From contig JAETPW010000007.1 in assembly GCA_021771025.1 (NCBI GenBank), forward strand, positions 60,744 through 124,743: a stretch of DNA of 64,000 nt, read 5' to 3'. Position 1 is the first letter of the stretch. Every line of letters starts with the position of its first letter. This stretch comes from Clostridiaceae bacterium. Lineage in GTDB: Bacteria; Bacillota; Clostridia; TANB77; CAG-508. This document shows positions 280 through 64,000 of this stretch, piece after piece. A program made the position numbers and the translations under genes. Below the pieces are notes generated by a model. The model was not told the origin of the DNA and ran no database searches. It was given only the letters and a program-made list of their open reading frames with translations.

Positions 280-1189
280 AAATTATCACAAAACTTCAAT
301 CAACTGGTACCCCGGTCATATGGCAAAAACAAGAAGACAAATAACAGAAGACTTATCCCTAATCGACGTAGTCATCGAACTCTTAGACGCCAGAATTCCC
401 ATTTCAAGCCAAAACCCTGACATAGCCAAAATCACCCAAGGCAAAAAAAGAATTATCGTCTTAAATAAATGTGATCTAGCAGAAGAAAGAGAAAACCAAA
501 AATGGGTAGCCTATTTCCAAAAGCAAGGAATACCAGCCATTTTAACAGATGCCAGCTCAGGTAAAGGTATCGAAAATCTACTAAAAGAAATCGAAAAAGT
601 CATGGAATCAGAAACTGAAAAACAAAAGCAAAAAGGTAGAATCGGAAGAAAAATTCGTGCCATGATATTAGGAATCCCCAACGTAGGGAAATCCTCACTA
701 ATCAACCGAATCACCAAAAAATCCACAGCAGGTGTAGGAAACAAACCAGGAGTAACCAGACAAAAACAATGGATACACATCAATGACAAAATAGAACTAC
801 TAGACACCCCAGGAGTATTATGGCCAAAATTTCAAACTGACGAAATAGCCTATCATCTAGCATTTACCGGAACCATTAAAGAGGACATACTAGACAAACT
901 TGAAGTAGCCTATCAGTTAACCAAATTCTTGCTAGAAAACCAATGTGAAAAATTGCTCACCAGATATCAACTATCCATAGAGCAAATTAAAGAAATACAA
1001 GAAAAGCCCCAACCAGAAAACGAAAACATCTACGAAATCATGTTACTCATCGGAAAAAAACGAGGATGCGTAATCTCAGGAGGAAAAATAGACGAAGAAA
1101 AAACAGCCAGAATTCTATTAGATGAATTTAAAAATGGTGTATTAGGCAAAATAACCATAGAAACCCGAATTGGGGACGGGGTAAAATGA
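266..1189 (+). CDS. rbgA: ribosome biogenesis GTPase A (YlqF/RbgA)
   Basis: N-terminal INWYPGHMAKTRRQ motif; circularly permuted GTPase motifs (NKCDL before GIPNVGKSSLIN, then DTPG). Confidence 0.9.
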   Translation: MEENKNYHKTSINWYPGHMAKTRRQITEDLSLIDVVIELLDARIPISSQNPDIAKITQGKKRIIVLNKCDLAEERENQKWVAYFQKQGIPAILTDASSGKGIENLLKEIEKVMESETEKQKQKGRIGRKIRAMILGIPNVGKSSLINRITKKSTAGVGNKPGVTRQKQWIHINDKIELLDTPGVLWPKFQTDEIAYHLAFTGTIKEDILDKLEVAYQLTKFLLENQCEKLLTRYQLSIEQIKEIQEKPQPENENIYEIMLLIGKKRGCVISGGKIDEEKTARILLDEFKNGVLGKITIETRIGDGVK

Positions 1190-1228
1190 GGGAATTTTAC
1201 CCATTTTAGGGACAGGGTGAATACAAAT
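1170..1228. repeat. intergenic repeat family A (GGGGACGGGG - hairpin GGTAAAAT/ATTTTACC - AGGGACAGGG)
   Basis: Near-identical copies lie at 34584-34641 and 36686-36741, and in reverse orientation at 59928-59972. This copy supplies the last codons and the stop of rbgA. Confidence 0.7.
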
Positions 1229-2063: not shown

Positions 2064-4793
2064 ATGGAAAAGAAAATTTGGTTTACCAAAAGCATCGAAG
2101 AAGTAAAACAAGAATTACAAACAGATGAGGCAAATGGATTATCCTCAGAGGAAGTCAAAAAACGTCAAGAACAGTATGGGCTAAACGAATTACAAGCAGC
2201 CAAAAAGAAAAAACTATGGCAACGATTTTTAGATCAATTCAAAGATTTTTCCATCATTGTCTTAATCATTGCTGCCATTGTTTCAGGGGTAGTAGGAGTA
2301 GCAGAAGGCGAAGGAATTACGGATACGATTATTATTTTAATTGTTGTTTTAGTCAATGCCATTATTGGTATAGCTCAAGAAAGTAAAGCCGAAAAATCAT
2401 TAGAGGCTCTTCAACAACTAAGTAATCACGCAGCAAAAGTGATTCGTAATGGAACAATGGAAGTCATCCCTGCTAAAGAACTTGTACCAGGAGATGTTAT
2501 CGTTTTAGATACAGGAGATTATATTCCAGCAGATTTACGTGTAATAGAAGCCATCAATTTAAAATCACAAGAAAGTTCACTAACCGGAGAATCTGTCCCA
2601 GTAGAAAAAACAACAGGCAAGATTGATGATGAAGAAGTAGGAATAGGCGATAGAACCAATCTATTATTTTCTTCTAGCCTAATTACTTATGGCAGAGGAA
2701 AAGGAATTGTTGTTTCTACCGGTATGGAAACCGAAGTAGGAAAAATAGCCGGAATGATCAATAACACCGAAAAGCAAGAAACACCCTTACAGCGAAAATT
2801 AAATCAGTTAGGAAAAACATTAGGAACAGCAGCTTTACTCATTTGCGTATTCATTTTTGTTTTAGGACTATTCCAAGGAAAAGAACCAATTCATATGTTT
2901 ATGACAGCGGTATCGTTAGCAGTAGCAGCTATTCCAGAAGGGTTAGTAGCGGTATCTACCATTGTTCTTGCTATAGGGGTACAAAAAATGGTAAAACGTC
3001 ATGCCATCGTGAAAAGGCTTCCAGCAGTAGAGACATTAGGTGGGGCAACTGTCATTTGTTCAGATAAAACAGGAACGTTAACACAAAACAAAATGACCGT
3101 AGAAAAAATCTTTTGGAACGATTCTTTAAGAGAGTTAAAAGATATTCAAGAATCAGAAATGGACCAAGAATTAAAACAACTAGTCTATGCCAATATGTTA
3201 TGCAATGACACCAAAATAGGCAAAGAAGGGACACTAACAGGAGACCCAACCGAAACCGCGTTAGTTGATATGGCATTTGCTTTAAATTTCGATCCAAGCA
3301 TTTATGACCGTACCCCAAGAATAGAAGAAGTACCTTTTGACTCAGATCGAAAATTAATGACAACCGTCAACAAGGTAGGAAATGAATATGTCGTTTATAC
3401 CAAAGGAGGAATAGACGAATTATTAAGAAGATGTAACTCCTATGTATTAAATGGGGAAATATATCCTCAGATAGACCAATATATGCCTAAAATCAGAAAA
3501 GAAAACGAGGCAATGGCAAAAGAAGCATTACGTGTATTAGGATGTGCTTACAAAAAAATAGACCATCAGCCAAGTAAAGAAGAAATGGAAAAGATAGAGC
3601 AAGACCTTACCTTTATTGGTATGGTAGGAATGATTGATCCTCCAAGAGAAGAGGCTAAAAAGGCAGTAGAAACGTGTAAAATGGCGGGAATCAAAACCGT
3701 AATGATTACCGGAGATCACAAAATTACTGCTATTGCTATTGCCAAAAAATTAGGCATTATTGAGCAAGAAGACGAAGCATTAACTGGATTAGAATTAGAA
3801 CAAATGTCAGATGAAGAGTTAACCAAAAACATTAGAAAATATGCAGTATATGCTCGAGTTTCACCAGAACACAAAGTTCGTATCGTTAAAGCTTGGCAAA
3901 AAAACGGTGAAATTGTAGCCATGACAGGGGACGGAGTAAACGATAGCCCAGCCTTAAAAACGTCTGATATTGGTTGTGCTATGGGAATTGTTGGTACAGA
4001 TGTAGCAAAAGAAGCGGCAGATGTTATCCTAACTGATGACAATTTTGCAACCATTGTATCAGCCGTAGAAGAAGGAAGAAGAATATACGATAATATCTTA
4101 AAAGTAATTCAATTCTTACTATCTAGCAATGTAGGAGAAATTTTTGTTTTATTATTTGCTACTTTACTTACTCCTTTATTTGCCCAGTGGTTCGGCATAA
4201 CCGACATTAATCATTTAGAAATATTATTACCAATTCATATTTTGTGGATTAATTTAGTCACTGATTCATTGCCAGCTTTAGCCTTAGCCTTTGATCCAGC
4301 AAACCGTGATATTATGAAACGAAAACCAGTAAAACCAAGCCAAGGAGTATTCACCAAAGGAATGATTTGGCGAGTGATTTACCAAGGAGTTATGATTGGT
4401 GGACTTACTTTAGCAGCCTTTATGATTGGCCTTGCGACGACAACAGAGCCAATTGGAAACTTAAGTTTAGATGCTTCTAAAATTGAAATAGGGCAAACGA
4501 TGGCATTTATGACATTAGCTTTATCTGAGTTAGTTCATGTATTTAATGTAAGAGATAATAAAAACTCACTAGTTAAAACAAAAGTATTTAATAATACTAA
4601 ATTGATCTGGGCGGTATTAGCTTCGGCAACGCTAATGTTTGTTATTGTAGGTGTGCCTGGATTAAGAGAGGTATTTAGTATACCACTTCTTCCAAAGGAA
4701 AATGTGATTGAATTGGTTGCTTTGATTTTAGCACCAGTTGTGATTGTTGAATTGTTTAAGTTGATTAAAATAAATACTACAAAGGATGAGTAA
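2064..4793 (+). CDS. P-type cation-translocating ATPase (Ca2+-ATPase, PMCA/SERCA-like, type IIA)
   Basis: DKTGTLT phosphorylation motif, TGDGVNDSPALK, a cation-ATPase N-terminus, and ten predicted transmembrane segments; 909 aa. Confidence 0.9.
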   Translation: MEKKIWFTKSIEEVKQELQTDEANGLSSEEVKKRQEQYGLNELQAAKKKKLWQRFLDQFKDFSIIVLIIAAIVSGVVGVAEGEGITDTIIILIVVLVNAIIGIAQESKAEKSLEALQQLSNHAAKVIRNGTMEVIPAKELVPGDVIVLDTGDYIPADLRVIEAINLKSQESSLTGESVPVEKTTGKIDDEEVGIGDRTNLLFSSSLITYGRGKGIVVSTGMETEVGKIAGMINNTEKQETPLQRKLNQLGKTLGTAALLICVFIFVLGLFQGKEPIHMFMTAVSLAVAAIPEGLVAVSTIVLAIGVQKMVKRHAIVKRLPAVETLGGATVICSDKTGTLTQNKMTVEKIFWNDSLRELKDIQESEMDQELKQLVYANMLCNDTKIGKEGTLTGDPTETALVDMAFALNFDPSIYDRTPRIEEVPFDSDRKLMTTVNKVGNEYVVYTKGGIDELLRRCNSYVLNGEIYPQIDQYMPKIRKENEAMAKEALRVLGCAYKKIDHQPSKEEMEKIEQDLTFIGMVGMIDPPREEAKKAVETCKMAGIKTVMITGDHKITAIAIAKKLGIIEQEDEALTGLELEQMSDEELTKNIRKYAVYARVSPEHKVRIVKAWQKNGEIVAMTGDGVNDSPALKTSDIGCAMGIVGTDVAKEAADVILTDDNFATIVSAVEEGRRIYDNILKVIQFLLSSNVGEIFVLLFATLLTPLFAQWFGITDINHLEILLPIHILWINLVTDSLPALALAFDPANRDIMKRKPVKPSQGVFTKGMIWRVIYQGVMIGGLTLAAFMIGLATTTEPIGNLSLDASKIEIGQTMAFMTLALSELVHVFNVRDNKNSLVKTKVFNNTKLIWAVLASATLMFVIVGVPGLREVFSIPLLPKENVIELVALILAPVVIVELFKLIKINTTKDE

Positions 4794-4961
4794 GGTTAAT
4801 TTATCCTCGAAAGATCACTTTCTTTTTATCTTACTTTAGCGTTGGAAATAGTTAGATTTAGTTAGTGAAAGAAAATAAGTAATGAATAAAACCAGTGAAT
4901 ACTATCTCTAAATATAGTATTCATTGGTTTTTGTCGTTACTAGATAATAGTTTTTACGAAT

Positions 4962-5160
4962 GAGTCCGCTCTGAACCCAAGGCATCTGTAGTATTTTTGG
5001 GATAAATTTAGTCTTCCATAGCAGGGGCATTTTAAAACCCTTAAGTCCCTAACGAAGAGGCCTGTAATCGGGTTTTAAGGCTGACGCGGGTCTTAGGGAA
5101 CTGTCAGACGTAAATTTATCCCAAAAATACTACAGATACCTTGGGTTCAGAGCTACTTTG
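4962..5160. repeat. MITE-like structured repeat, family S, copy 1 (about 199 bp with about 50-bp terminal inverted repeats)
   Basis: The left arm AGTCCGCTCTGAACCCAAGGCATCTGTAGTATTTTTGGGATAAATTTA is the reverse complement of the right arm. The conserved core TCCATAGCAGGGGCATTTTAAAACCCTTAAGTCCC...GGGTTTTAAGGC...TCTTAGGGAACTG is shared with copies at 55959-56156 and 58988-59106. Confidence 0.8.
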
Positions 5161-5265
5161 TTGGAAAAGATTATTCAGTAACTTTTTGTTCATAAATGAT
5201 CTCAATTTGTAGAAAAAAATAAAAAAATATGTTATAGTGTAAAAATAAAATAGGAGGAAAATAAC

Positions 5266-6135
5266 ATGGAATGGGATTTATTTGTTTCACATGCTTCAGA
5301 AGATAAAGATGACATTGTAAAACCGTTAGTCCAAGAATTAGAAAGCTATGGATTAAAAGTATGGTATGATGAATTTGAATTAAAGATAGGAGATAGTTTA
5401 TCAGAGTCAATAGATAAGGGAATTATTCACTCTAAAAATGGTTTACTGATAATCAGTAAAAGTTTTCTGAATAAAAATTGGACCGATTATGAATTAAAAA
5501 GTTTTATTATGAAAGAAACTGAACAAGGCGGAAATATTTTACCAATTTGGCACAATGTTACTAAAAAAGATATGATGAATAGAAGTTTATTTCTTGCCGA
5601 TAAATTTGCATTATCTTCTAGTATAGGAGTAAAAAAATTGGCCATAAAAATTTTACAAAAAATTAGACCAGATATATTAAGTAGTTATGCTTTAAAAAGT
5701 GCTGTTAGAAATGCTTATGCAGAAGAAAAGGGAAAATCAGAGAAAGTTAGCATTGAAGAGTTAAGAGATGGAAAAATAGTCCACAAATCACTTCCTAACT
5801 ATATTGTAGCTTCAAGCTTTTTGATTAGTCAAATATTTTCTGATGTATGGGATTCAGATTTTAATGACTTTATTGAAAACCTAGCAAGGGATTGGGATTA
5901 TGATAGAGAATTTTTTATCTGGAATGTCATTACCAGTTCCTATTTGATGTTTATCAGAAATAATAAAATTTCTTTTGATGATACGAAGAAGAAGAGAAAG
6001 GTCTTTGGTGATTTAGTTAATTTGTCATTTGGAATTGTAGAGCCAACTTTTCTTAGTAAAGATGAATTTAATATTTTAATACAGATTTATAAGTATAATT
6101 ATGATTTTATAGATCAATTTGGTCTGAAATCGTGA
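5266..6135 (+). CDS. TIR-domain protein (N-terminal Toll/interleukin-1 receptor domain, about 135 aa, plus an uncharacterised roughly 150-aa C-terminal domain)
   Basis: DLFVSHASEDKD box 1, VWYDEFELKIGDSL, and NWTDYELKSF, which matches the catalytic-glutamate motif WCLDEL of NADase TIRs. Strong SD site AGGAGG 8 nt upstream. Very AT-rich gene with no partner gene. Confidence 0.85.
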   Translation: MEWDLFVSHASEDKDDIVKPLVQELESYGLKVWYDEFELKIGDSLSESIDKGIIHSKNGLLIISKSFLNKNWTDYELKSFIMKETEQGGNILPIWHNVTKKDMMNRSLFLADKFALSSSIGVKKLAIKILQKIRPDILSSYALKSAVRNAYAEEKGKSEKVSIEELRDGKIVHKSLPNYIVASSFLISQIFSDVWDSDFNDFIENLARDWDYDREFFIWNVITSSYLMFIRNNKISFDDTKKKRKVFGDLVNLSFGIVEPTFLSKDEFNILIQIYKYNYDFIDQFGLKS

Positions 6136-6471: not shown

Positions 6472-9039
6472 ATGTACATTTTTAACCGCATTACTGTTAA
6501 TCCACAATTACCAAAACGAATCGAAAAATTAGCTGAAATTGCTAATAATTTATGGTGGGCGTGGAATTCAGAATTTTTAAGACTATTTAAAAAAATAGAT
6601 AAAGATCTATGGGAGGAATCTGGAAAAAATCCTGTCAAATTTCTCCGTCAAGTTTCTCAAGATCGTCTAGAAGAAGCATCAAAAGACATTCTTTTTTTGC
6701 GTGACTATGATCGCGTAGTAGAAAATTTTGAAGATTATATGAATAGCAAAAACACTTGGTTTGCTAATCGTTATCCAGAAAATAAAAATGACTTAATTGC
6801 TTATTTTTCAGCAGAATATGGCTTAGATGAAACCATTCCCATTTATTCAGGGGGCTTAGGTATTTTATCAGGAGACCATTTAAAATCAGCTAGTGATTTA
6901 GGAATTCCTCTAGTAGCGGTAGGATTATTATATAAAAATGGTTATTTTCATCAAAAAATTGATGGAAATGGTAAACAACAAACCGAATACCATGACATAG
7001 ATTTATACAATATGCCAATTCTTCCGGTAAAGGACGAAAAAGGCGAAGACTTAATGATCTACATCAAATTTCCCAAAAGAAGAATTTATCTAAAAGTATG
7101 GCAAATTAATGTAGGAAGAGTAAAATTATATTTACTTGACTCAGATATCGAAAAAAATAATCCAGAAGATCGTGATGTTACTTTGCGCCTATATGGTGGT
7201 GACCAAGAGATGAGAATCCGCCAAGAAATCGTTTTAGGTATGGGAGGAGTTAATCTACTTACTCGTGCTTTAAAACTAAAACCAACCGTTTATCACATGA
7301 ATGAAGGGCACTCTGCATTTTTAACGTTAGAATTAATCAAAAACATCATCAAAGAAAAAGAAGTTTCCTTTGATTTAGCAAAAGATATCGTTAGTTCAAA
7401 AACAGTATTTACTACTCACACACCAGTACCAGCAGGAAACGATATTTTTCCAATTTCTTTAGTAGAAAAATACTTCAAAGACTTCTGGCCAAGAATTGAC
7501 CTATCTCGTGAAGAATTTTTAAAGATGGGAATGAAACCATGCCAAGATTTAGAACCAGGATTTAATATGGGAATATTAGCCTTAAAAATTGCTGGAAAGA
7601 AAAATGGCGTAAGCAAACTTCATGGAGCAGTATCCAGAGAATTATTTGGAGAAGTTTGGCCAGAGATAGCCGCCAATGAATCACCAATCGGTCATGTTAC
7701 CAATGGAATTCATACTTGTTCATGGCTTGCTCCCAATTTAAAGGCTTTATACAATAAATATTTAATTCCTTATTGGCAAGATAATATTCAACACGATTAT
7801 GTTTGGGAAAAAATCAAAAACATTCCTGATGATAAATTATGGGATGCCCACCAAGATCGCAAAAATAAATTACTAAAAATCGTAAAAGACAACACAACCG
7901 AACGCCTAAGAAGATCAGGCTATCCTTATGAAGAAATAACCTCAATTGTTTCAAAATTAGATCCAAATGCACTAACCATTGGATTTGCCAGAAGATTTGC
8001 TACCTACAAAAGAGCAACCTTGATTTTTAAAGACTTAGAACGAATTACTCAAATCTTAAATAACAGTGATCGTCCAATTCAACTTATCTTTGCTGGAAAA
8101 GCCCATCCTGCTGACAAAGAAGGGCAAGACTTAATCAAATATATCCATGAAGTATCCATGATGCCACAATTTAAAGGCAAAATATTCTTATTGGAAAACT
8201 ACAATATTGCCATGTCACGTTACTTAATCAGTGGGGTAGACGTATGGCTTAACAACCCAAGAAGGCCAATGGAAGCATCAGGAACCAGCGGGCAAAAAGC
8301 ATCTGTCAATGGAGTGTTAAACTTCAGTGTATTAGACGGATGGTGGGCAGAAGGCTATAACCAAGAAAATGGTTGGACCATTGGAACAAACGCCGAATAC
8401 GATTCCTACGAAGCCCAAGACATGGCAGATAGCCAAAGTATGTATCGAACATTAGAAGAAAAAATTGTTCCTGCTTATTATGCCAAAGACAAAAATGGGG
8501 TCTCCCGAAAATGGATCAATTTAATGAAAAACTCAATTATCACCACAGGAGGAAAATACAGCACATCTCGTATGTTAGTTGACTACACAAGAGACCTATA
8601 TATACCTCTATGCAACCTAACCAATGAATACTACGAAAATGTAGACGATGTAGCATCTTATCACGCATGGAAACAAGAAATATACACCAATTGGAAAGAC
8701 ATTAAACTGCATCAAAAAAATAACTTAGACAACATCACCATTGATGCCGGAAATCAAATTGAGGTAAAATGTGAGGTAGAATTACCTAATATTGATCCAG
8801 AACACATCAGTGTGGAATGTTACTATGGAAAAATATTAGAAAATGGAGTAGTAGAAAACGTAACCATCATTCCAATGAATCTAGTAGAAATAAATGAAGA
8901 AACAAAAACGTATGGATACACAACCAAAATAGAACTAAAAACAGGAGGAAACTACGGTTATACCTTCCGCATTATGCCAAAACATGAGATGTTATTAGAA
9001 CCAGCCAATTTAAATTTAATTAAATGGATAACGAAATAG
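6472..9039 (+). CDS. glgP: alpha-glucan (glycogen/maltodextrin) phosphorylase, GT35 family
   Basis: 855 aa; DUF3417-type N-terminus, NEGHSAF motif, and a pyridoxal-phosphate lysine region (FARRFATYKR). Confidence 0.85.
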   Translation: MYIFNRITVNPQLPKRIEKLAEIANNLWWAWNSEFLRLFKKIDKDLWEESGKNPVKFLRQVSQDRLEEASKDILFLRDYDRVVENFEDYMNSKNTWFANRYPENKNDLIAYFSAEYGLDETIPIYSGGLGILSGDHLKSASDLGIPLVAVGLLYKNGYFHQKIDGNGKQQTEYHDIDLYNMPILPVKDEKGEDLMIYIKFPKRRIYLKVWQINVGRVKLYLLDSDIEKNNPEDRDVTLRLYGGDQEMRIRQEIVLGMGGVNLLTRALKLKPTVYHMNEGHSAFLTLELIKNIIKEKEVSFDLAKDIVSSKTVFTTHTPVPAGNDIFPISLVEKYFKDFWPRIDLSREEFLKMGMKPCQDLEPGFNMGILALKIAGKKNGVSKLHGAVSRELFGEVWPEIAANESPIGHVTNGIHTCSWLAPNLKALYNKYLIPYWQDNIQHDYVWEKIKNIPDDKLWDAHQDRKNKLLKIVKDNTTERLRRSGYPYEEITSIVSKLDPNALTIGFARRFATYKRATLIFKDLERITQILNNSDRPIQLIFAGKAHPADKEGQDLIKYIHEVSMMPQFKGKIFLLENYNIAMSRYLISGVDVWLNNPRRPMEASGTSGQKASVNGVLNFSVLDGWWAEGYNQENGWTIGTNAEYDSYEAQDMADSQSMYRTLEEKIVPAYYAKDKNGVSRKWINLMKNSIITTGGKYSTSRMLVDYTRDLYIPLCNLTNEYYENVDDVASYHAWKQEIYTNWKDIKLHQKNNLDNITIDAGNQIEVKCEVELPNIDPEHISVECYYGKILENGVVENVTIIPMNLVEINEETKTYGYTTKIELKTGGNYGYTFRIMPKHEMLLEPANLNLIKWITK

Positions 9040-9100
9040 GGAATAGGGAAAAATTAGCTAGGGAAAAAAGGGGACGCCCCAAACTTCCCTAGCTAAAAAT
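9040..9100. repeat. intergenic repeat family B (nested hairpin with a GGGGACGCCCC core)
   Basis: CTAGGGAAAAAAGGGGACGCCCCAAACTTCCCTAG. Similar copies at 20111-20160, 20701-20750 (reverse), 54842-54892 and 58859-58910, all immediately after stop codons. Confidence 0.7.
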
Positions 9101-10910: not shown

Positions 10911-10980
10911 GTCTACCTCCTTGTCAATTCCTAAATTTACTGTTATAATATCATAAAATTAAACAAGGGTCAAACTTTTT

Positions 10981-11040
10981 CGTTTTGGGGACGGTTCTCA
11001 AAACGAAAAAATCTTCCGTTTGAGAACCGTCCCCAAAACG
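10981..11040. repeat. palindromic repeat family R (GGGGACGGTTC core)
   Basis: A 25-bp near-perfect inverted repeat, CGTTTTGGGGACGGTTCTCAAAACG / CGTTTGAGAACCGTCCCCAAAACG. Relatives at 51049-51133, 54061-54127, 57651-57710 and 50243-50280. Confidence 0.7.
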
Positions 11041-11061
11041 AAAAAGAGAAAGGAAAAAAGA

Positions 11062-20074: not shown

Positions 20075-20110
20075 ATAAAAGAGGCTCCTTATGACAAGGA
20101 GCCTTTTACT

Positions 20111-20160
20111 ATAGGGATAGGGAAAATAGGGGGACGCCCTTTTTTTCCCTATTCCTATTC
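20111..20160. repeat. repeat family B copy
   Basis: AATAGGGGGACGCCCTTTTTTTCCCTATT. Confidence 0.6.
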
Positions 20161-20606: not shown

Positions 20607-20700
20607 CCTTTCTTTTTTAGTTTAAATTTCATTGCTTTTTCACTTTCTTCTAAAGGTATACATAGGGATAAAGCAACTTCTTTTCTTTCCCGCTAATCTA

Positions 20701-20750
20701 ATAGGGAAATTTTAGATAGGGAAGAAAAGGGCGTCCCCTTTATTTCCCTT
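20701..20750. repeat. repeat family B copy (reverse orientation)
   Basis: AGGGAAGAAAAGGGCGTCCCCTTTATTTCCCT. Confidence 0.6.
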
Positions 20751-25948: not shown

Positions 25949-26718
25949 AAAAATTATTAATTATTGTCATGATTACTTTAGTAACGATATTAACCATCAT
26001 AACGGTCATTAATGGATTACAAATTGGTGGATTAACTATTTTAGGAATTACTGGTATGAAAGATAAAAATGCTCAACTAGAAACCCAAGTAGAACAGGCG
26101 ACAAAATTAGCTAGTACAGATTTTCCCAATAAAGTAACCAGTGTTAATGAAAGTATAAAAAAATTACAAAAGCAAAGACAAGATTACGAAGATATGGTAA
26201 CGGTAAGTACAGATAGTCAGGTACAATCAGCTAATCAATTTGATGTCTATCCAATCGAATATTTATGGACACAAATAGGAAAACATGCCAAACGTGAAGG
26301 CGTAGTTATGAAAATGGATGTAGTAAAAGGAAGCACAAACACTAAAGATACGTACAATTTAAGTTTTACGGCAACAGGATCTTATATCGGAATTACTGAT
26401 TTCATCAGTGATATAGAAGATGATTCGTCACTTGGATTTAAAATTGAAGAATTTAAAATGGTACCAAGTGGAAATAATAATGAATTACAAGCTACTTTTA
26501 CTTGCAAAGAAATTACCATCAAGGGAATTTCAGCATCCACAGTGTCCACACCAGATGCTAATTCACAAAAAAATACTGCCGGTGAAAATGCAACAAACAA
26601 TACGACAAGTAATACCACAAACAGTACAAATACCAATACAAATACAACGAATACTAATACTGCGGGGGGTACAACTAATACAACCAATACAACCAACACA
26701 GCAACTACGACACAGTAG
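25945..26718 (+). CDS. PilO-like pilus assembly protein with Thr/Asn-rich low-complexity tail
   Basis: N-terminal TM, coiled coil, and a C-terminal NTTSNTTNSTNTNTNTT tail. Confidence 0.5.
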   Translation: MKKLLIIVMITLVTILTIITVINGLQIGGLTILGITGMKDKNAQLETQVEQATKLASTDFPNKVTSVNESIKKLQKQRQDYEDMVTVSTDSQVQSANQFDVYPIEYLWTQIGKHAKREGVVMKMDVVKGSTNTKDTYNLSFTATGSYIGITDFISDIEDDSSLGFKIEEFKMVPSGNNNELQATFTCKEITIKGISASTVSTPDANSQKNTAGENATNNTTSNTTNSTNTNTNTTNTNTAGGTTNTTNTTNTATTTQ

Positions 26719-26740
26719 TTAAGAAGAGAAGCGATGAAAA

Positions 26741-26830
26741 TGTTTCATCCATTCAATCTAGGTACACTTTCAAAGTTTACCACTATTATGAAAGGAGGAA
26801 TATGTTAGTTTTAAACACTAACATATGCTA
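26741..26830 (+). promoter_or_regulatory. conserved leader element family L, copy 1 (hairpin plus 9-codon uORF overlapping the downstream start)
   Basis: TTCAATCTAGGTACACTTTCAAAGTTTACCACTATTATGAAAGGAGGAATATGTTAGTTTTAAACACTAACATATGCTAAGG. Related copies at 38655-38735, 50437-50504 and 54971-55066. Confidence 0.6.
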
Positions 26831-27286
26831 AGGAAAATGGCCAAAAATATGATAAAAGAAATCATCATATTGTTATTACTTACATTAGCTATTATTTTAA
26901 TCCTTGGAGTGCTACTCTATGGCTACTCTCCTTCTAGTAAGGTGTTGCCAGAAGCAGTATCCTATACTACACCAGAAAGTGTAAGAGAAGAATTAGCAAG
27001 TAGTACACAAGATGATGAAGATCAAATGGTGATGACGTATGAAATTACAGCATCTGATTTAAAAAATTACCAAAGAGTCAATGAATATGTACAAGGAAAA
27101 CGAAATCCATTTGCTTCTACAGCAACTTCAGAAAACAATAATTCAGGAAATACTACTTCAGGGGGGCAATCATCGGGAAATACTAATGGAAATGCCAATA
27201 CAAATACTAACACGAATGAAGGTTCATCAACATCTGGAAATAATCAGAATAATACTAATTATTTTCCTGATCGAGGAACCAAATAA
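26825..27286 (+). CDS. membrane protein with Ser/Asn/Thr-rich tail (pilus-cluster associated)
   Basis: N-terminal TM segment; C-terminal low-complexity NNSGNTTSGGQSSGNTNGNANTNTNTN. Confidence 0.5.
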   Translation: MLRKMAKNMIKEIIILLLLTLAIILILGVLLYGYSPSSKVLPEAVSYTTPESVREELASSTQDDEDQMVMTYEITASDLKNYQRVNEYVQGKRNPFASTATSENNNSGNTTSGGQSSGNTNGNANTNTNTNEGSSTSGNNQNNTNYFPDRGTK

Positions 27287-27366
27287 AACAAGTTAATAAC
27301 ATTAGATTTATCTAAACATAAATCTATCAAAAGATAAAATTTCAAAAGAAAAGGAGGATGAGTTGA

Positions 27367-27801
27367 ATGATGAAAGAACAAAAAGGTATTACATTAGTAG
27401 CATTAGTCATTACCATTATCGTATTATTAATTTTAGCAGGAGTATCCATTGCTGCATTATCTGGACAAAATGGTATATTAACCAATGCGTCTGAGGCAAA
27501 ACAACAAGATGCAATTGGAGCTGCAAAGGATATAGTCGCTATGGCAATTAATGAATCCATTAATGCTTATTATGATGCTACTTATGCTGGTGGAGATGCT
27601 ACTAAAATTGTAGCAGGAAAACCAGGAGATACAGCAATCAAGTTTGTTAAAGCACAAGCTAGCAAAGCTAACGGAACTACTATTACTGTAGATAAAGATG
27701 TTGCACCTGCAACTGTTACGATAACAACAACAGATAAAAATCCAGCTACCGTAACAGCTACAATTGATGCAGATGGTGCTTTAAGTGCTTGGTCAAAATA
27801 G
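27367..27801 (+). CDS. pilin-like protein with non-canonical prepilin N-terminus
   Basis: KGITLVALVITIIVLLILAGVSIAAL class-III-like signal lacking Glu+5. Confidence 0.65.
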   Translation: MMKEQKGITLVALVITIIVLLILAGVSIAALSGQNGILTNASEAKQQDAIGAAKDIVAMAINESINAYYDATYAGGDATKIVAGKPGDTAIKFVKAQASKANGTTITVDKDVAPATVTITTTDKNPATVTATIDADGALSAWSK

Positions 27802-27831
27802 TCAAATTGAATTTTAATAGGAGGAAATAAA

Positions 27832-38654: not shown

Positions 38655-38735
38655 TATTCAATCTATGTAAGTTCTCAAAGTTTACCAATAGCAAGAAAGG
38701 GGGAATATGTTGGTTTTAAAAGCTAACATATGCTA
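38655..38735 (+). promoter_or_regulatory. leader element family L, copy 2
   Basis: TTCAATCTATGTAAGTTCTCAAAGTTTACCAATAGCAAGAAAGGGGGAATATGTTGGTTTTAAAAGCTAACATATGCTAG. The uORF MLVLKANIC stop overlaps the ATG of the M23 peptidase gene. Confidence 0.6.
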
Positions 38736-39977
38736 GAAACAATGCGTAAAATTTTATGTATCGTTTTCGCTTTTCTCATCTGTTTAGTCGCAACGTATGT
38801 ACAGGCAGAAGATATGAATACAACGAACACGAATCAAGGAGGAACAGATTTACAAACCAAGCAAAAAGAATTGCAAGATCAAATTAATCAGGCAAATGAT
38901 GAATTAAATCAAACGCAAAGTCAGCTTTCAGAAAATTTGCAACAAGTGCAAAAGTTAGATGAAAAAATTGCTGGATCTGAAACAGAACTGAGTGACTTAA
39001 CAGAAAAGATAGAAAACTTAAAAACGTCAATGAATAAGGTGCAGCAAGAATTAACGGAAGTAACAGAGCGTTATGAAAGGCAAAGACAAATTTTTGAACA
39101 ACGAATGGTAGCTATTTATGAGGCGGGAGATACTAATTATTTAGATATCCTTTTGCGTTCAAGAAGTGTTTCCGATTTTCTTTCTAGTTATTATGTTATT
39201 TCCGAAATAGCTGATTCAGATACAGAACTGTTAAATGATATAGCTGAAAAGAAAGACCAAATATCGCTTGCTAAACAAAAACTAGATAACGAAAAAACAG
39301 AGTTAGCACAAATGATTGAAACACAAAGTAGAACAGCTAAAATTTTGCAAAATACTAAGGTGATTCGTGAAAATTATATTGCTAAGTTATCAGAGGAAGA
39401 AAAAGCAAAACAGGCACAAATCGATGAATACAATCAAGCATTAGCACAAATCAATAGCCAAATTTTGCAATTAGCACAAGCAGGCATTGATACCCAATAC
39501 ATAGGAGGAGAATTAGCATGGCCAACACCAGGCTATACGAGAATTAGTTCTCCTTATGGAATGAGAGTACATCCGATTACTGGTGTTTATAAATTACATA
39601 CGGGAGTTGACATAGGAGCACCAATGGGAGCAAACTTTGTAGCTGCTAACGAGGGAATTGTTGTAAAATCAGAATATAATGTAGCTTACGGTAAAATGGT
39701 ACTGATTGACCATGGAGGAGGAATTTCCACCTTATATGCTCATGGATCTGAATTTTTAGTACAAGTAGGAGATTCAGTGACAAGAGGACAAGCCGTATTA
39801 AAGGTAGGATCTACTGGATATTCAACAGGTGCACATGCTCACTTTGAAGTAAGAAAAAATGGTTCACCAGTAAATCCAATGCCATACATTACGAATGGAA
39901 TAGTACCAAATTCAGAGCAAGATGCACAAGGAAATACTACTGCTACTAAAGAAGAAATACAAAATACAACCAATTAA
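38730..39977 (+). CDS. M23 family metallopeptidase with N-terminal coiled-coil domain (EnvC/FtsEX-partner-like)
   Basis: Long coiled coil followed by an M23 LytM domain (HTGVDIGAP...HAHFEV). Confidence 0.8.
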   Translation: MLETMRKILCIVFAFLICLVATYVQAEDMNTTNTNQGGTDLQTKQKELQDQINQANDELNQTQSQLSENLQQVQKLDEKIAGSETELSDLTEKIENLKTSMNKVQQELTEVTERYERQRQIFEQRMVAIYEAGDTNYLDILLRSRSVSDFLSSYYVISEIADSDTELLNDIAEKKDQISLAKQKLDNEKTELAQMIETQSRTAKILQNTKVIRENYIAKLSEEEKAKQAQIDEYNQALAQINSQILQLAQAGIDTQYIGGELAWPTPGYTRISSPYGMRVHPITGVYKLHTGVDIGAPMGANFVAANEGIVVKSEYNVAYGKMVLIDHGGGISTLYAHGSEFLVQVGDSVTRGQAVLKVGSTGYSTGAHAHFEVRKNGSPVNPMPYITNGIVPNSEQDAQGNTTATKEEIQNTTN

Positions 39978-44094: not shown

Positions 44095-44250
44095 GAAAAA
44101 ATAAGGGAAAAAAATTATTTTATCTTTTGAAAAGAAGGATGATTTTTAACTAAAGATAAAATAATTTTTTTCCAAAAAGTATTGACAAACAAATGAAAAA
44201 GCTTTATAATAACTACTGTTACCGAGGAAACTTAGTAACCAACTAAATAT

Positions 44251-44565
44251 GGGTAGGTGGCCGAGTGGCTAAAGGCGGCAGACTGTGGTCTTTGGTAAAA
44301 ACAAAACCTAAACTTGCAGCTCTTGTCAGTAATGATAAGATGAACACCGGGCTAATTCGGGGAACTCTAAGGGTAGAAATACTGATGACAATCCCGAGCT
44401 AGGAAGAAAACTTCCGAGTGTAGAGACTTTATACCTGGTATCTTCTAAGCAGAAGATAAAGAGAAAGTCCAGACTACAAACATGGTAAAATGGTAGTGAA
44501 AACTATAGTAGTAAGAAATCTGTTCTCATTTGAGTACGATGGTTCGAATCCATCCCTGCCCACCA
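44251..44565 (+). tRNA. tRNA-Tyr (GUA) gene interrupted by a group I intron in the anticodon loop
   Basis: Exon 1 (44251-44286) gives acceptor GGGUAGG, D-arm GCC-GAGUGGCUAAA-GGC, and anticodon stem GCAGA plus CUGU. Exon 2 (44516-44565) gives AAA, UCUGU, a long variable arm, T-arm GAUGG-UUCGAAU-CCAUC, CCUGCCC-A-CCA. The spliced anticodon loop is CUGUAAA. The exon sequence is very close to Bacillus tRNA-Tyr. Confidence 0.7.
44287..44515 (+). ncRNA. group I self-splicing intron (229 nt) within tRNA-Tyr
   Basis: The upstream exon ends in U and the intron ends in G (omega-G). P-, Q-, R- and S-like elements are present (AATTCGGGGAAC, AATCCCGAGC, TCCAGACTACA, AAACTATAGTAG), and GCAG 30 nt inside the intron can pair with the exon end CUGU. 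Confidence 0.65.
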
Positions 44566-44595
44566 AAAATACAAGGAAACTTGTATTTTATTTTT
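44562..44595 (+). repeat. 34-bp direct repeat (att-like), left copy; also the tRNA terminator hairpin
   Basis: Identical to 49076-49109. Confidence 0.8.
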
Positions 44596-44638
44596 CTATT
44601 ACACACGAACAAAGGTTCTAAATAAAAAGGGGAAGAAT

Positions 44639-49075: not shown

Positions 49076-49109
49076 ACCAAAAATACAAGGAAACTTGTAT
49101 TTTATTTTT
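49076..49109 (+). repeat. 34-bp direct repeat (att-like), right copy
   Basis: Identical to 44562-44595. Confidence 0.8.
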
Positions 49110-49238
49110 ATTTTTTATTATCGAATAAAAAATAACCCTCAATCCCAAAAAAAGTAAATAAATCACCAAACTCCATTGAAATTATCCCCAAAATGTGATA
49201 AAAATATAGTCAGCATAAATGAAGGAGGAAAAGCCAAA

Positions 49239-50234: not shown

Positions 50235-50285
50235 AAAATGTCCAATTGGGGACAGGTACGTTTGGGACATATTGTCCAACAAAAG

Positions 50286-51005: not shown

Positions 51006-51048
51006 CAATCTAACTCCTTAATAAAGAGCGAACATTAAAACCAATAAC

Positions 51049-51133
51049 CTGTCCCTAAAACGAAAAAATCTTCCTTTTGAGAACCGTCCCCAAAAAGAAA
51101 AAAACTTCTTTTTGGGGACGGTTCTTAAAAAGA
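51049..51133. repeat. repeat family R copy (18-bp perfect palindrome AGAACCGTCCCCAAAAAG / CTTTTTGGGGACGGTTCT)
   Basis: Read directly from the sequence. Confidence 0.7.
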
Positions 51134-51206
51134 AAAAATTAAGATTTTCTCTATTTGTTCTTAAGGTTTTTTGTGGTATACTATTGATAATAAGAGGAGG
51201 AGAGTT

Positions 51207-54060: not shown

Positions 54061-54127
54061 AGAAAATCTTCTTTTTGGGGACGGTTCCGAAAACGAAAAA
54101 ATTTTCTTTTTAGGGACAGGTTTCAAG
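54061..54127. repeat. repeat family R copy
   Basis: TTTTTGGGGACGGTTCCGAAAACGAAAAAATTTTCTTTTTAGGGACAGG. Confidence 0.65.
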
Positions 54128-54169: not shown

Positions 54170-54844
54170 ATGAAAAAAATGGTTGCTCTCATTTGTGTAT
54201 TGTTGGTTATTTTTGTTGGTATGTTTGTCAAACAAAATTATGACCGTAATCAAAAAAACATCACAGCAGATGAAGTTCAAAAAATAGAATCGTTTATTGC
54301 CAGTGTATATGCGTGGAAAGAAATAACCGGTGAAGCATTACCAAGCTTTCAACAAATTAATGAGGCTCCTGAACGTTGGATTTGGGAAGTCGTGAAAAAA
54401 AATTTAGAAGAGTATAGTTTAACTTATGCTCAATTACAAGATAAAGCAAAAGAGATCTTTGGCCCAGACTTTACCAAACAGTTTCCTGAGCAAGGAAACG
54501 AAGCATTTACTTGGCAAGAAGAAACAGGAACTTATCTGCCTACTGAAATTCAAATTGATGAGCAAGATGATTTATTTTTAATTCACCAGATTAGTAAAAG
54601 TAAAGAAGGGTATGAAGTTGAACTAATAGAATATGTAGAAGATTATTCTTCTTATGAAAATCACCAGATTCGTATTCAAAACTTACAAGGAGAGACAATT
54701 TCTTTATTGGATTCATCAAAAAGTGAAACCGAAGTGATTGAATTAGTTAAACAAAATGCAGATAAGTTTTCCAAAAAGAAAATTAGCTTAAAAAAAGACG
54801 GAAAAGATAAATTTATCATAACGAAAGTAGAAGAAAAAAAGTAG
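54170..54844 (+). CDS. hypothetical membrane-anchored protein
   Basis: N-terminal TM/signal anchor; no recognisable domain. Confidence 0.45.
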   Translation: MKKMVALICVLLVIFVGMFVKQNYDRNQKNITADEVQKIESFIASVYAWKEITGEALPSFQQINEAPERWIWEVVKKNLEEYSLTYAQLQDKAKEIFGPDFTKQFPEQGNEAFTWQEETGTYLPTEIQIDEQDDLFLIHQISKSKEGYEVELIEYVEDYSSYENHQIRIQNLQGETISLLDSSKSETEVIELVKQNADKFSKKKISLKKDGKDKFIITKVEEKK

Positions 54845-54892
54845 GGAAAAGAAGGGGACGCCCTTTTTTTCCCTATTAAAAATTTCCCTACG
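54842..54892. repeat. repeat family B copy
   Basis: GTAGGGAAAAGAAGGGGACGCCCTTTTTTTCCCTAT. Confidence 0.6.
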
Positions 54893-55066: not shown

Positions 55067-55960
55067 ATGGAAGATTTATCACAATTAGAAATGTGTACAA
55101 TTTGTCCACATACTTGCCAAGTTAATCGTTTGCAAAAGCAAAAGGGGAGATGTGGAGCAGAGGATACAGTGCGTATAGCCTTAGCATCGGTCTATCACTT
55201 TGAAGAGCCATGCCTAAGTGGAAAAAGAGGGTCAGGTACTGTATTTTTTTCTCACTGTACGATGAGGTGTGAGTATTGTCAAAATTATGAAATTAGTAGT
55301 TTAGGCAAAGGAAAAGAAATAACAGTAGAAGAATTAGCAGAAATTTTCTTAAAGCAACAAGAAAAGCAGGTTCATAATATTAATTTGGTAACCCCGACGA
55401 GTTATGTGCCACAAATCAAAAAAGCAATTGAGTTAGCTAGAAATCAGGGACTACAACTGCCAATTGTCTATAATACGAATGGCTATGAAACAGTAGAAAC
55501 GATAAAGGAATTAGATGGCTATGTAGATATTTATTTACCGGATTTCAAATATGCAGAAGATGAATTGGCAAAGCGTTTATCTCATGTAGATCATTATTTT
55601 TCGACAGTGGCACAGGCCATTTTAGCCATGCAAAAACAAGTAGGAGATGCGGTTTTTGATGACGAAGGCATGATGCAAAAAGGATTGATCATTAGGCATT
55701 TGATTTTACCGAATCATATCATTAATACAAGAAAAGTACTCAAGTGGATTAATGATTATTTGCCAAATGTGTATGTAAGCATTATGGCTCAATATTTTCC
55801 TACTTACCGAGCAAAGCAAATAGAAGAGATTAATCGAAAGATAACTGATGAGGAATATCAAAAAGTGGTGCGTTATTTAGATCGTTTAGTACTAACGAAT
55901 GGGTATTTACAGGAATTAGGAGAACATGAGGAGGAATATGTGCCAAAGTGGGAGGGATAA
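55067..55960 (+). CDS. radical SAM activating-enzyme-like protein (PflA/AmmeMemoRadiSam-type)
   Basis: N-terminal CTICPHTCQV...GRCG cluster plus CTMRCEYCQN radical-SAM CxxxCxxC. Confidence 0.65.
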   Translation: MEDLSQLEMCTICPHTCQVNRLQKQKGRCGAEDTVRIALASVYHFEEPCLSGKRGSGTVFFSHCTMRCEYCQNYEISSLGKGKEITVEELAEIFLKQQEKQVHNINLVTPTSYVPQIKKAIELARNQGLQLPIVYNTNGYETVETIKELDGYVDIYLPDFKYAEDELAKRLSHVDHYFSTVAQAILAMQKQVGDAVFDDEGMMQKGLIIRHLILPNHIINTRKVLKWINDYLPNVYVSIMAQYFPTYRAKQIEEINRKITDEEYQKVVRYLDRLVLTNGYLQELGEHEEEYVPKWEG

Positions 55961-56156
55961 GTCCGCTCTGAACCTGAGGTATCTGTAATATTTTTTAGAT
56001 AAATTTAGTCCTCTATAGCAGGGGCATTTTAAAACCCTTAAGTCCCTCACAAAGAAGCTTGTTATCGGGTTTTAAGCCTAACGTGAGTCTTAGGGAACTG
56101 TTAGACGTAAATTTATCTAAAAAATATTACAGATACCTCAGGTTCAGAGCTACTTT
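55959..56156. repeat. MITE-like structured repeat, family S, copy 2
   Basis: AAGTCCGCTCTGAACCTGAGGTATCTGTAATATTTTTTAGATAAATTTA...core...TAAATTTATCTAAAAAATATTACAGATACCTCAGGTTCAGAGCTACTTT. The terminal-repeat differences from copy 1 are compensated in both arms. It overlaps the radical SAM stop codon. Confidence 0.8.
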
Positions 56157-56274
56157 AGTGTAAAAGTATTATTAGCCAGTAACTCAAATTTTAGAAAAAT
56201 ACCCGAAAAATGTAGAAAAAAGAAATGCGGTATGGTATACTCATATTGAGTAAGAAAACAAGGAGGAAAATAAA

Positions 56275-57650: not shown

Positions 57651-57710
57651 CATGTCCAATTGGGGACATTTTTGTCCAATTAGGGACGGTTCTTTTTTGG
57701 ACATTTTTCA
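57651..57710. repeat. repeat family R-related copy (GTCCAATTGGGGACA / TTAGGGACGGTTC)
   Basis: Read directly from the sequence; a related short form lies at 50243-50280. Confidence 0.55.
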
Positions 57711-58823: not shown

Positions 58824-58858
58824 TACAAAGAAAAAAGGAAAAAAGAAAAAAGAAAAAG

Positions 58859-58910
58859 AGGGAAGAAGGGGGACGCCCCTTTTTTCCCTATACAATTTTC
58901 CCTATTTTTC
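58859..58910. repeat. repeat family B copy
   Basis: GGGAAGAAGGGGGACGCCCCTTTTTTCCCTAT. Confidence 0.6.
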
Positions 58911-58987
58911 AATCCATTGGTTATTATTCACAGCTTGCTGAAATTGGTAACCGTGTAAAAAAGGAAGCCTAGCTAATGGTGATCATA

Positions 58988-59106
58988 TTAATTTAACCTT
59001 CCATAGCAGGGTCAATTTAAAACCCTTAGGTCCCTCACATGGAAGCCTGTTATCGGGTTTTAAGCCTAACGTGGGTCTTAGGGAACTGTCAGGTATAAAT
59101 TATAAC
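58988..59106. repeat. family S copy 3 (core only, lacks the long terminal inverted repeats)
   Basis: AATTTAACCTTCCATAGCAGGGTCAATTTAAAACCCTTAGGTCCCTCACATGGAAGCCTGTTATCGGGTTTTAAGCCTAACGTGGGTCTTAGGGAACTGTCAGG. Confidence 0.7.
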
Positions 59107-59199
59107 AACTATTAATCAAAGCCAAAAATCTTACTCATAGACATCTTGCTAATCCCTACCGAATATGATAAAATAAACCCAAACAAAGGAGGGATATTT

Positions 59200-59902: not shown

Positions 59903-59927
59903 TAAAATGAAATTCGATAGCCACCCT

Positions 59928-59972
59928 GTCCCTAAAATGACAAAATGACCAAAATTTACCCCGTCCCCAATC
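59928..59972. repeat. repeat family A copy, reverse orientation
   Basis: The reverse complement reads ATTGGGGACGGGGTAAATTTTGGTCATTTTGTCATTTTAGGGACAGGGTGG. Confidence 0.7.
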
Positions 59973-63930: not shown

Positions 63931-64000
63931 GTCCGCTCCAAAGTGAGATGTTTGCTACTTCTTTTTTGATTCATTTAGTATTTCATAGCGTGGTCTTTTT
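63931..64000. repeat. family S-related element, truncated by the window end
   Basis: AAGTCCGCTCCAAAGTGAGATG...TTTCATAGCGTGGTC parallels the left end and core start of family S. Confidence 0.45.

Follow-up and report, generated by a model that had tools for sequence, protein, structure and literature searches.

The window analysed here is a 64,000-nt stretch of contig JAETPW010000007.1 from a Clostridiaceae bacterium, and its intergenic regions carry a set of short repeats that share the heptamer GGGGACG. Its genes include those for SpoIIM, SpoVAC/D/E, spore photoproduct lyase and a type IV pilus (PilB/PilC-type). As far as the sequence tells, the host is a member of an uncultured, spore-forming, low-GC gut Clostridia clade. 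Proteins identical to those of the window were also found in many Logan gut-type assemblies, and the RbgA homologues carrying a source name are labelled 'MAG: Clostridia bacterium'. By a conservative list of genes, coding sequence makes up 84.7% of the window and non-coding DNA ∼15%, with 55 of the 59 retained genes on the plus strand. The GC content is 32.5%, and not the 30% given in an earlier, sequence-only reading that pointed to the repeats.

The heptamer is strongly overrepresented. GGGGACG has 15 matches on the two strands, against 0.86 ± 0.93 expected from 100 dinucleotide-preserving shuffles, none of which reached 15 (maximum 3). AGGGACAG is also in excess (7 matches versus 0.79 expected). 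The excess noted in the sequence-only reading is thus real. The degenerate word GGGACRG has 20 sites. They are concentrated between genes, as had been read: 17 of the 20 fall in the 15% of DNA that is non-coding (binomial test, p = 1e-11), and three in the ∼85% that is coding. These three sites, at 3927, 48530 and 2593 (minus strand), contradict the stronger claim that the motif never lies inside a coding sequence. The GGGGACG at 3927 is part of the codons for the TGDGVND motif of a P-type ATPase, and the AGGGACAG at 48530 and the GGGACAG at 2593 are isolated. All three coding matches look incidental, due to chance or to codon constraint.

GGGGACG is split 11:4 between the plus and minus strands. 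Since 55 of 59 genes are on the plus strand, this bias is inseparable from gene orientation, and transcription and replication cannot be told apart as its source. At 11 of the 12 orientable loci in the window the G-rich strand is the sense strand of the upstream gene; B3 follows its minus-strand gene, and A4 is antisense. In relatives, represented by related metagenomic contigs (the L-numbered sequences below), 3 of 8 orientable loci are antisense.

The repeats occupy 14 loci in the window, with a site density of ∼1 per 3–4 kb, and fall into families A, B, R and E (Table 1). Four A copies and five B copies lie where the sequence-only reading had placed them. The former are 75–89% identical over 55 nt, and all of the latter fold into hairpins; in families B and R homology extends over 34–68 nt. 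The proposed palindromic family R is retained in part: 10975-11046 and 51071-51134 are long palindromes, but 54066-54125 is a direct pair and 57652-57704 belongs to the E type. The E, or TGTCCAATTGGGGACA, type comprises this copy (E2) and E1, which the earlier reading did not contain.

Table 1. Members of the GGGGACG-core superfamily in the 64,000-nt window
Element	Position	Strand	Description
A1	1168..1222	+	TTGGGGACGGGG, hairpin GGGTAAAAT/ATTTTACCC, then TTTTAGGGACAGGG
A2	34584..34638	+	begins at stop of pilC-like gene
A3	36684..36738	+	begins at stop of transketolase C-terminal subunit gene
A4	59919..59972	-	reverse copy, ∼20 nt upstream of start of FtsX-family 1111-aa gene
B1	9036..9096	+	TAGGGA repeats, then hairpin TTAGCTAGGGAA..GGGGACGCCCC..TTCCCTAGCTAA
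B2	20110..20160	+	hairpin, ΔG -32 kcal/mol, z = -8.2, between convergent genes
B3	20700..20749	-	hairpin downstream of minus-strand spoVAD
B4	54841..54890	+	hairpin; 5' arm includes TAG stop codon of 224-aa gene
B5	58858..58904	+	hairpin 35 nt downstream of spore photoproduct lyase gene
R1	10975..11046		inverted doublet; 33-nt arms 94% complementary, 6 nt apart
R2	51047..51137		reverse A-like pair (CCTGTCCCT .. GAACCGTCCCC) joined to inverted GGGGACGGTTC
R3	54066..54125	+	direct pair TTGGGGACGGTTCC..(36 nt)..TTTAGGGACAGGTTTC
E1	50238..50279	+	ATGTCCAATTGGGGACAGG..GGGACATATTGTCCAA, directly 3' of ftsZ stop
E2	57652..57704	+	two units, ATGTCCAATTGGGGACAT then TGTCCAATTAGGGACGGTTCTTTTTTGGACAT, 3' of folA

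Copies abut or overlap stop codons, as had been noticed, at rbgA, pilC, transketolase, glgP and the 224-aa gene. A1 provides the final 6 codons of rbgA (IGDGVK) together with its stop codon, in agreement with the sequence-only reading, and B1 begins on the stop codon (TAG) of glgP. A2 and A3 have CCTATAAT in common upstream. B2 sits just past a canonical terminator hairpin, and the orientation of B3 matches the transcription of spoVAD. R1 folds with ΔG -48.8 kcal/mol (z = -13) and lies between a conserved TTGTCA-17-TATAAT promoter-like site and the ribosome-binding site of rnhA. The R2 palindrome (51071-51134) has 29-nt arms, 93% complementary and 6 nt apart. R3 separates the histidine kinase gene from the 224-aa gene. 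The genes downstream of copies (those for a ROK kinase, splB, rnhA, a response regulator and the 224-aa protein) are unrelated to one another and mostly housekeeping.

A common module on variable stems

The elements are built from a common module of 31–37 nt, in which a near-invariant (A/T)TGGGGACG lies within or beside a short hairpin (for example, TGTCCAATTGGGGACGGTTCTTTTTTGGACA). The module occurs singly, in head-to-tail arrays that close with the variant core GGGACA, in near-perfect palindromes of 64–72 bp, and in an A/U-extended terminator-like hairpin (family B). The layout is the same in family A, in R3 and in the reverse portion of R2, namely TTGGGGACGG followed 36–37 nt on by TTTAGGGACAGG. 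At the A2 locus of L132, TTGGGGACGGGGTAAAAAGAGGTAAAATTACCCAAT appears twice before the same terminal TTTAGGGACAGG. Family A thus consists of 36-nt units arranged head to tail, the array ending in a variant core.

For each of the 17 intergenic cores we determined the longest contiguous Watson–Crick stem that encloses it, with 2000 random intergenic positions of the same window as control. Enclosing stems average 7.3 bp at cores versus 4.4 bp at random positions (Mann–Whitney test, p = 1.8e-6), and stems of at least 6 bp are found at 65% of cores versus 15% of random positions. Across subfamilies and species the stems are mutually unrelated in sequence and fall into seven types: TGTCC/GGACA (E2, L130, L155 and L126), TTTCC/GGAAA (L129), TTTTTCGTTTT/AAAACGAAAAA (R1), TTCTTTTT/AAAAAGAA (R2), TTGTCAA/TTGACAA (L157), AGGGAA/TTCCCT (family B) and GTCCC/GGGAC (the L122 copy of family A). 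The common denominator is an arbitrary-stem hairpin presenting (A/T)TT-GGGGACG-N-TTCT. The same heptamer on unrelated stems, in all subfamilies and in relatives at 70–75% RbgA identity, upholds the proposal that A, B and R form a single GGGGACG-core superfamily. The second core on the 3' side, GGGACA, often constitutes the 3' arm and is paired with an upstream TGTCC.

Structure is uneven among the families. In the family A copies of the window a convincing outer enclosing stem is lost, and terminal inverted repeats are lacking. The central hairpin that had been described for this family is present, but it is weak (consensus folding, -1.8 kcal/mol) and has zero compensatory pairs, so that the family A structure is unsupported on its own. 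The five B hairpins measure 14–16 bp (-20 to -32 kcal/mol, z = -3.4 to -8.2) and, unlike in the other families, their GGGG pairs with CCCC at the apex. They share the arrangement AGGGAA-N4-5-GGGGACGCCC-N5-TTCCCT, seen in five or six hairpins. Their T-run is located inside the 3' arm, not after the stem, and on the sense strand the B hairpins went uncalled in a simple terminator scan.

Gain, loss and decay of copies among relatives

Unit number changes at fixed loci. At the A2 locus, where the window has one 36-nt unit, the 99.4% identical strain L132 has 2.2 in tandem. At the folA-downstream site L155 has an array of at least 3.5 units of 37 nt, with 100% matches between units and running to the contig end, against the two units of E2. 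In L129, a relative with 27% GC, a 31-nt unit is present three times, the last with GGGGACA in place of GGGGACG, and these units combine GGGAAA/TTTCC arms with an E-type loop.

Presence and absence also differ among sister species whose RbgA is 87–91% identical. One sister species lacks no fewer than four window copies at orthologous spacers and has a decayed copy at a further one; L125 and L155 derive from one sample. A1 is absent from L124 and L125, where the rbgA-mrnC spacer measures 54 nt and has no element, and in L122 the rbgA-mrnC element is shifted 45 nt further downstream. R1 is replaced by unrelated sequence in L125. L155 does not have the ∼200-nt stretch containing E1, nor B4 (spacer of 28 nt versus 222 nt in the window), and its R3 is present with cores decayed to AAGGATGG / AAGGACAGG. 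The R2 palindrome is kept in L155 with a matched change in both arms, from CCGTCCCC/GGGGACGG to CCGTCTC/GGAGACGG. In the B1 orthologue of L122 the hairpin is likewise kept, with the loop GGGGAAACCCC. Overall abundance is very uneven: against ∼17 intergenic cores in the 64 kb of the window and about six in 21 kb of L126, a single core is present in L130, and there are none in 21 kb of L131 or in the 10 kb to the right of the window.

The core at the end of rbgA is found far beyond the sister species. Among 119 RbgA orthologues at 70–75% identity, ∼25 end in ..EC(P/A)(I/V)GD(V/G)S.., which is the translation of GAATGTCCAATTGGGGACG; an ending ..C(P/A)(I/V)GD(V/G).. corresponds to TGTCCAATTGGGGACG. 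Other orthologues at this identity end in ..ITIEK(C/R). The core at the rbgA stop was confirmed at the DNA level in L126 and L130.

Wider searches added no further members. No Rfam family matches the elements at gathering or at permissive E-value thresholds; the far sub-threshold matches are mostly to eukaryotic miRNA-precursor models. BLAST gave no match for R1 against plasmids or for A1 against phages. Scans of viral contigs with TGTCCAATTGGGGACG and TTGGGGACGGTTCTYWWW returned matches in phage contigs of 38–55% GC, several apparently within coding sequence, which we judged to be chance. Among the matches listed for GGGGACGGN{27,29}GGGACAGG in genome contigs, all were single and almost all came from high-GC or unrelated genomes, and they are taken as chance. 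The metagenome-contig scan with TGGGGACGGN{23,27}TTTAGGGACAGG had one match, in L128, an unrelated contig of 60% GC. Positions 1-90 of L128 (minus strand) contain three GGGGAC(A/G)GGCT motifs at 34–35-nt spacing beside a tRNA-like sequence. These are probably chance despite the matching period, and the locus is truncated at the contig end. A full-text literature search for the motif strings found unrelated primer and guide sequences only.

Interpretation, alternatives and surrounding elements

Overall, we suggest that these elements are probably one lineage-amplified superfamily of short interspersed intergenic repeats of the STAR/REP-like kind, selfish or near-neutral. We read them in this way because of their intergenic location, their homology beyond the heptamer and their modular hairpins, together with the change in unit number between near-identical strains, the gain, loss and decay between sister species, and the uneven abundance. 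Among the roles offered by the sequence-only reading, 'REP-like' is therefore the best fit for elements that are intergenic, hairpin-forming, lineage-amplified, present or absent between relatives and variable in unit number. Arrays would expand and contract through slippage or recombination, and new loci might arise via a trans-acting activity that recognises the conserved core. Since copies lie in 3' and 5' untranslated regions (UTRs), they would be transcribed; hairpins of family B could incidentally end or protect transcripts, and R1 would structure the rnhA leader as a 5'-UTR hairpin. Such effects on UTR structure or termination are likely side-effects, and we saw no sign of a dedicated regulatory function for each copy. 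The proposal that the repeats act as terminators is plausible for family B, the only family that qualifies. A protein-binding site, also among the proposed roles, would be the most interesting of them, given a loop motif that is conserved on varying stems.

Several observations weigh against selfish or near-neutral repeats. Neither a Pfam scan of 40 window proteins nor the precomputed Pfam gene tables of related contigs (∼190 kb in total) revealed a transposase or a Y1/HUH enzyme, the Y1 transposase RAYT (PF01797) included. The window holds no insertion sequence (IS), and comparison of filled with empty sites gave no target-site duplication or clean boundary, the flanks being too diverged. By our own tally, ∼16 of ∼20 orientable loci in the window and relatives are sense to the upstream gene, a bias that would fit a role at the RNA level. 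The core is kept across family-level divergence. Selfish repeats are not usually conserved to such a depth, a hint that the core is under selection, such as a conserved binding partner might exert. The matched change in R2 suggests selection on structure, or else conversion between the arms. Finally, the link of family B to the other families rests mainly on the heptamer, and L122 has GGGGAAACCCC at B1.

Part of this evidence would be accommodated if the repeats were functional recognition hairpins, an alternative that we regard as unlikely. Here, a loop (A/U)UUGGGGACG(N)UUCU on any stem would be bound by a trans-acting partner that is itself conserved, whether RNA or protein. This could be a regulator that binds RNA, an RNase, or a HUH/Y1 nuclease domesticated in the manner of REPIN-RAYT systems. 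The host would keep the copies for the sake of the interaction. The loop is constant, with stems varying over seven types and several species, and in many species whose RbgA is only 70–75% identical the rbgA stop still carries the core; the maintenance of the R2 palindrome by a matched two-arm change and the sense-orientation bias point the same way. However, orthologous cores decay in sister species (GGGGACGG to AAGGATGG and GGGGACGG to GGAGACGG), many copies are absent from close relatives, and the flanking genes have no common theme. No candidate partner gene was found among the sequences examined, and the window copies of family A do not have a convincing enclosing stem. Slightly more doubtful is the specific proposal that the loop (A/U)UUGGGGACG is the recognition element of a dedicated, vertically inherited protein, either a domesticated nuclease/transposase or an RNA-binding factor. 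If true, there would be a REPIN-RAYT-like partnership of repeat and protein in Gram-positive anaerobes, and it might be mechanistically related to the STAR elements, which share the TTGGGG motif and the GGGACAG signature.

Family B could alternatively consist of ordinary intrinsic terminators that converged on a G4-ACG-C4 clamp and are unrelated to A, R and E, in which case the superfamily would be partly an artefact. All 5 copies do lie downstream of a gene in the sense orientation, the minus-strand case included, and their hairpins are strong. The GGGGAAACCCC tolerated at B1 by a close strain and the GGGG-CCCC pairing, unlike that of other families, are in line with this. However, the shared AGGGAA-N4-5-GGGGACGCCC-N5-TTCCCT far exceeds what a terminator needs, the T-run inside the 3' arm and the terminator scan do not favour a canonical terminator, and B4 is a lineage-specific insertion into a 28-nt spacer. 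Moreover, a distant relative has AGGGACGCCCCC in a different stem, TTGTCAA/TTGACAA, and the L129 units join GGGAAA/TTTCC arms to the E-type loop. We consider a separate origin of family B improbable.

DNA uptake had been another proposed role, and the window does encode PilB/PilC-type pilus genes. An uptake signal of the DUS/USS type for this pilus or competence machinery, or a strand-polar motif of the Chi/KOPS type, would be compatible with a site every 3–4 kb and with the 11:4 strand bias of GGGGACG, and the inverted pairs resemble the terminator pairs of Neisseria DUS. We nevertheless hold this to be very improbable. In the coding 85% of the window the motif is nearly absent; copies share homologous flanks of ∼30–70 nt and form tandem arrays with strain-dependent numbers of units; close relatives differ sharply in abundance; and the strand bias is confounded with the 55 of 59 plus-strand genes. 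The uptake reading fails because copies avoid coding DNA, share long flanks and form arrays; Chi/KOPS was rejected on the ground that copies are intergenic only.

There is equally little in favour of a G-quadruplex on the G-rich strand that regulates transcription or translation. Family A has four G-tracts (GGGG-AC-GGGG ... GGG-ACA-GGG) and B1 has four GGG tracts, but the units of R, E and the relatives have GGTTC, GTTTC or GCTTC after the core and thus one or two tracts of G3 or more, and the central loop would be ∼27 nt. The reading fails because only family A and B1 have the four tracts. Least probable of all, the 36–37-nt arrays as antitoxin RNA of a type III toxin–antitoxin system or as degenerate CRISPR-like arrays would agree with ToxI in unit length (31–37 nt) and copy number (2–3.5), but the toxin–antitoxin version is effectively refuted by gene context (unrelated downstream genes without a ToxN-like domain), copies are spread over more than 14 loci, a CRISPR repeat plus spacer would need a longer period, and neither a ToxN-like toxin nor a cas gene stands next to any copy in the gene tables of the window and related contigs.

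Two further candidates were rejected. Operator sites (Spo0A, SinR, LexA, CtsR and RacA boxes) show partial resemblances only, at the wrong positions. Avoidance of a restriction–modification site does not apply, as GGGAC occurs 43 times versus ∼30 expected from our own base-composition estimate and is not avoided.

A small number of well-studied bacteria are known to carry short interspersed repeats that form hairpins (REP/BIME, STAR, BOX). The elements described here have useful traits, namely an invariant core that is very short and has outlasted family-level divergence, stems that can be exchanged, and all modes of assembly (single, tandem, inverted and terminator-like) within one 64-kb window. 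They are a clean system for comparative work on what recognises repeats of this sort, in a clade that is abundant in the gut and uncultured. There are practical consequences as well. Repeats break metagenomic assemblies (the contigs L155 and L160 both break off within repeats), alter gene ends (in many species the repeat encodes the C-terminal residues of RbgA), and reshape UTRs and operon spacing between sister species; unit number could serve for strain typing. Should there be no partner or function, the elements would be a further example of tolerated selfish DNA.

The window contains a second, unrelated repeat of ∼210 nt (4960-5169, 55957-56166 and 58945-59154, with partial copies at ∼36800-36900 and 63940-64000). 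Its copies are 60–87% identical to the reference copy and have long terminal inverted arms (GTCCGCTCTGAACC..ATCTGTA..TTTAGATAAATTTA / TAAATTTATCTAAA..TACAGAT..GGTTCAGAGC) and a conserved, G/C-rich centre (CCATAGCAGGGGC..AAAACCC..GGGTTTTAAG). The repeat is absent from the orthologous rSAM-thyA spacer of L155, L160 starts inside a copy, and no real match was found in Rfam. It looks like a foldback miniature inverted-repeat transposable element (MITE) or a structured RNA element. Directly downstream of one copy lies a gene (5266-6135) whose 289-aa product has a TIR domain at its N terminus (PF13676, E = 6.5e-19) and may be of the defence type.

Other features concern integration and duplication. 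A split tRNA gene at 44250-44565, not called by ARAGORN, has its 5' half (GGGTAGGTGGCCGAGTGGCTAAAGGCGGCAGACTG) and 3' half (GGTTCGAATCCATCCCTGCCCACCA) ∼270 nt apart, with a group I intron match between them at 44299-44488 (34.9 bits versus a gathering threshold of 50, E = 2.6e-7). It is probably a class II tRNA with a group I intron in the anticodon loop. A 39-nt direct repeat (ACCAAAAATACAAGGAAACTTGTATTTTATTTTT, 95% identical) is present at the 3' end of this split tRNA (44562-44600) and 4.5 kb downstream (49076-49114). The two copies bracket a PD-(D/E)XK endonuclease, a YhcG/DUF1016 nuclease, a DUF4365 protein and a disrupted alpha/beta-hydrolase-like open reading frame, and the region looks like a small island integrated at a tRNA, with att-like repeats. 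The slot upstream of rbgA (25-279 in the window; also L001, L122, L124, L126, L129 and L131) is a variable hotspot; depending on the relative, it is occupied by a YhcG/DUF1016 nuclease, KilA-N, RhuM, a TniB-like AAA/FtsH-type gene or an acetyltransferase that also has an HD domain. In the pilus cluster, two adjacent genes for proteins of ∼145 aa (27366-27665 and 27831-28130), presumably pilin-like, are 80% identical. A 129-nt leader-like segment (74% identical) lies at 26718-26846, upstream of the first gene of the pilus cluster, and at 38623-38751, upstream of the first PcsB-like M23 peptidase gene.

Likeness to known repeat systems

The uptake signals of Neisseria (DUS) and Pasteurellaceae (USS) are, like the repeats described here, short overrepresented words that often form inverted pairs in terminator-like hairpins downstream of genes. 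DUS and USS are frequent inside genes too, have non-homologous flanks and are not known to form tandem arrays. In contrast, the present copies avoid coding sequence, share ∼30–70 nt of homology and are arranged in tandem arrays.

The stem-loop repeats of Firmicutes (BOX, RUP and SPRITE of Streptococcus; PMC2267715) are also small, intergenic, hairpin-forming and modular, with tens to hundreds of copies per genome. MITEs of the RUP type possess terminal inverted repeats and a cognate IS and are accompanied by target-site duplications; no such feature was found for the elements of the window. We know of no sequence similarity to any of these families, no direct comparison having been made.

In E. 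coli, REPs serve as stabilisers of mRNA 3' ends or as terminators. Elements of the REP/BIME/REPIN group are imperfect palindromes of 30–40 nt, richer in GC than the DNA around them, strictly extragenic and often near stop codons; they occur as singletons, tandem mosaics and inverted doublets, and combine vertical inheritance with lineage-specific amplification (PMC3116915, PMC3337134). The present elements resemble them as short extragenic imperfect palindromes in many copies (17 of 20 cores intergenic, stems exceeding random, 14 loci), and the inverted doublets R1 and R2 resemble REPINs (PMC3116915), though most loci are singletons or direct arrays. The differences are considerable. The sequences examined (40 window proteins and the related-contig tables) contain no RAYT gene, and the REPIN-RAYT system has been described mainly in Proteobacteria. 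In REPs the stem itself is conserved, whereas here the loop and flank are conserved and the stem varies; head-to-tail arrays of identical units are atypical of REPs. Cores are preceded by AATT, TATT or TTTT and never by the 5' GTAG foot of REPs, and therefore the superfamily is not a strict REP/RAYT member.

In anatomy, the STAR (Staphylococcus aureus repeat) elements are the closest match. STAR consists of a 14-nt GC-rich motif and a spacer of ∼40 nt (40–44 nt), ∼55 nt in total; the stem-loop in the spacer varies in sequence with pairing kept, the number of repeats varies by strain, about half of the copies lie in UTRs or small RNAs, and both function and means of spread are unknown (PMC3532100; bioRxiv 10.1101/2023.05.16.541063). 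The repeats of the window share with STAR a short GC-rich motif in direct repeats, located between genes of an AT-rich Bacillota genome, and a stem-loop spacer of variable sequence (arrays of 36, 37 and 31 nt here, with a weak spacer hairpin in the window copies of family A). Unit number varies at fixed loci in both (here 1 versus 2.2 at A2 and 2 versus at least 3.5 at folA), many copies lie in 3' or 5' UTRs, and related species differ sharply in abundance. The STAR 'start signature' GTGGGACAGAAATGAT contains GGGACAG, as does the terminal core here, which is a lead and not evidence of homology. However, the GGGACA signature closes the array in our elements and opens it in STAR, and the period is 31–37 nt as against ∼55 nt. 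Long inverted doublets and a terminator-like variant are found here, unlike in STAR, and the host is an uncultured Clostridia clade and not Staphylococcus. The motif is also different, TNTGTTGNGGCCCN in STAR versus (A/T)TGGGGACG here: the core (A/T)TGGGGACG(G/C/T) departs from the STAR consensus T(G/A/T)TGTTG(G/T)GGCCC(C/A) and shares TTGGGG only, and for this reason the elements are not STAR members. They are best filed as a new family of the REP/STAR kind, belonging to neither.

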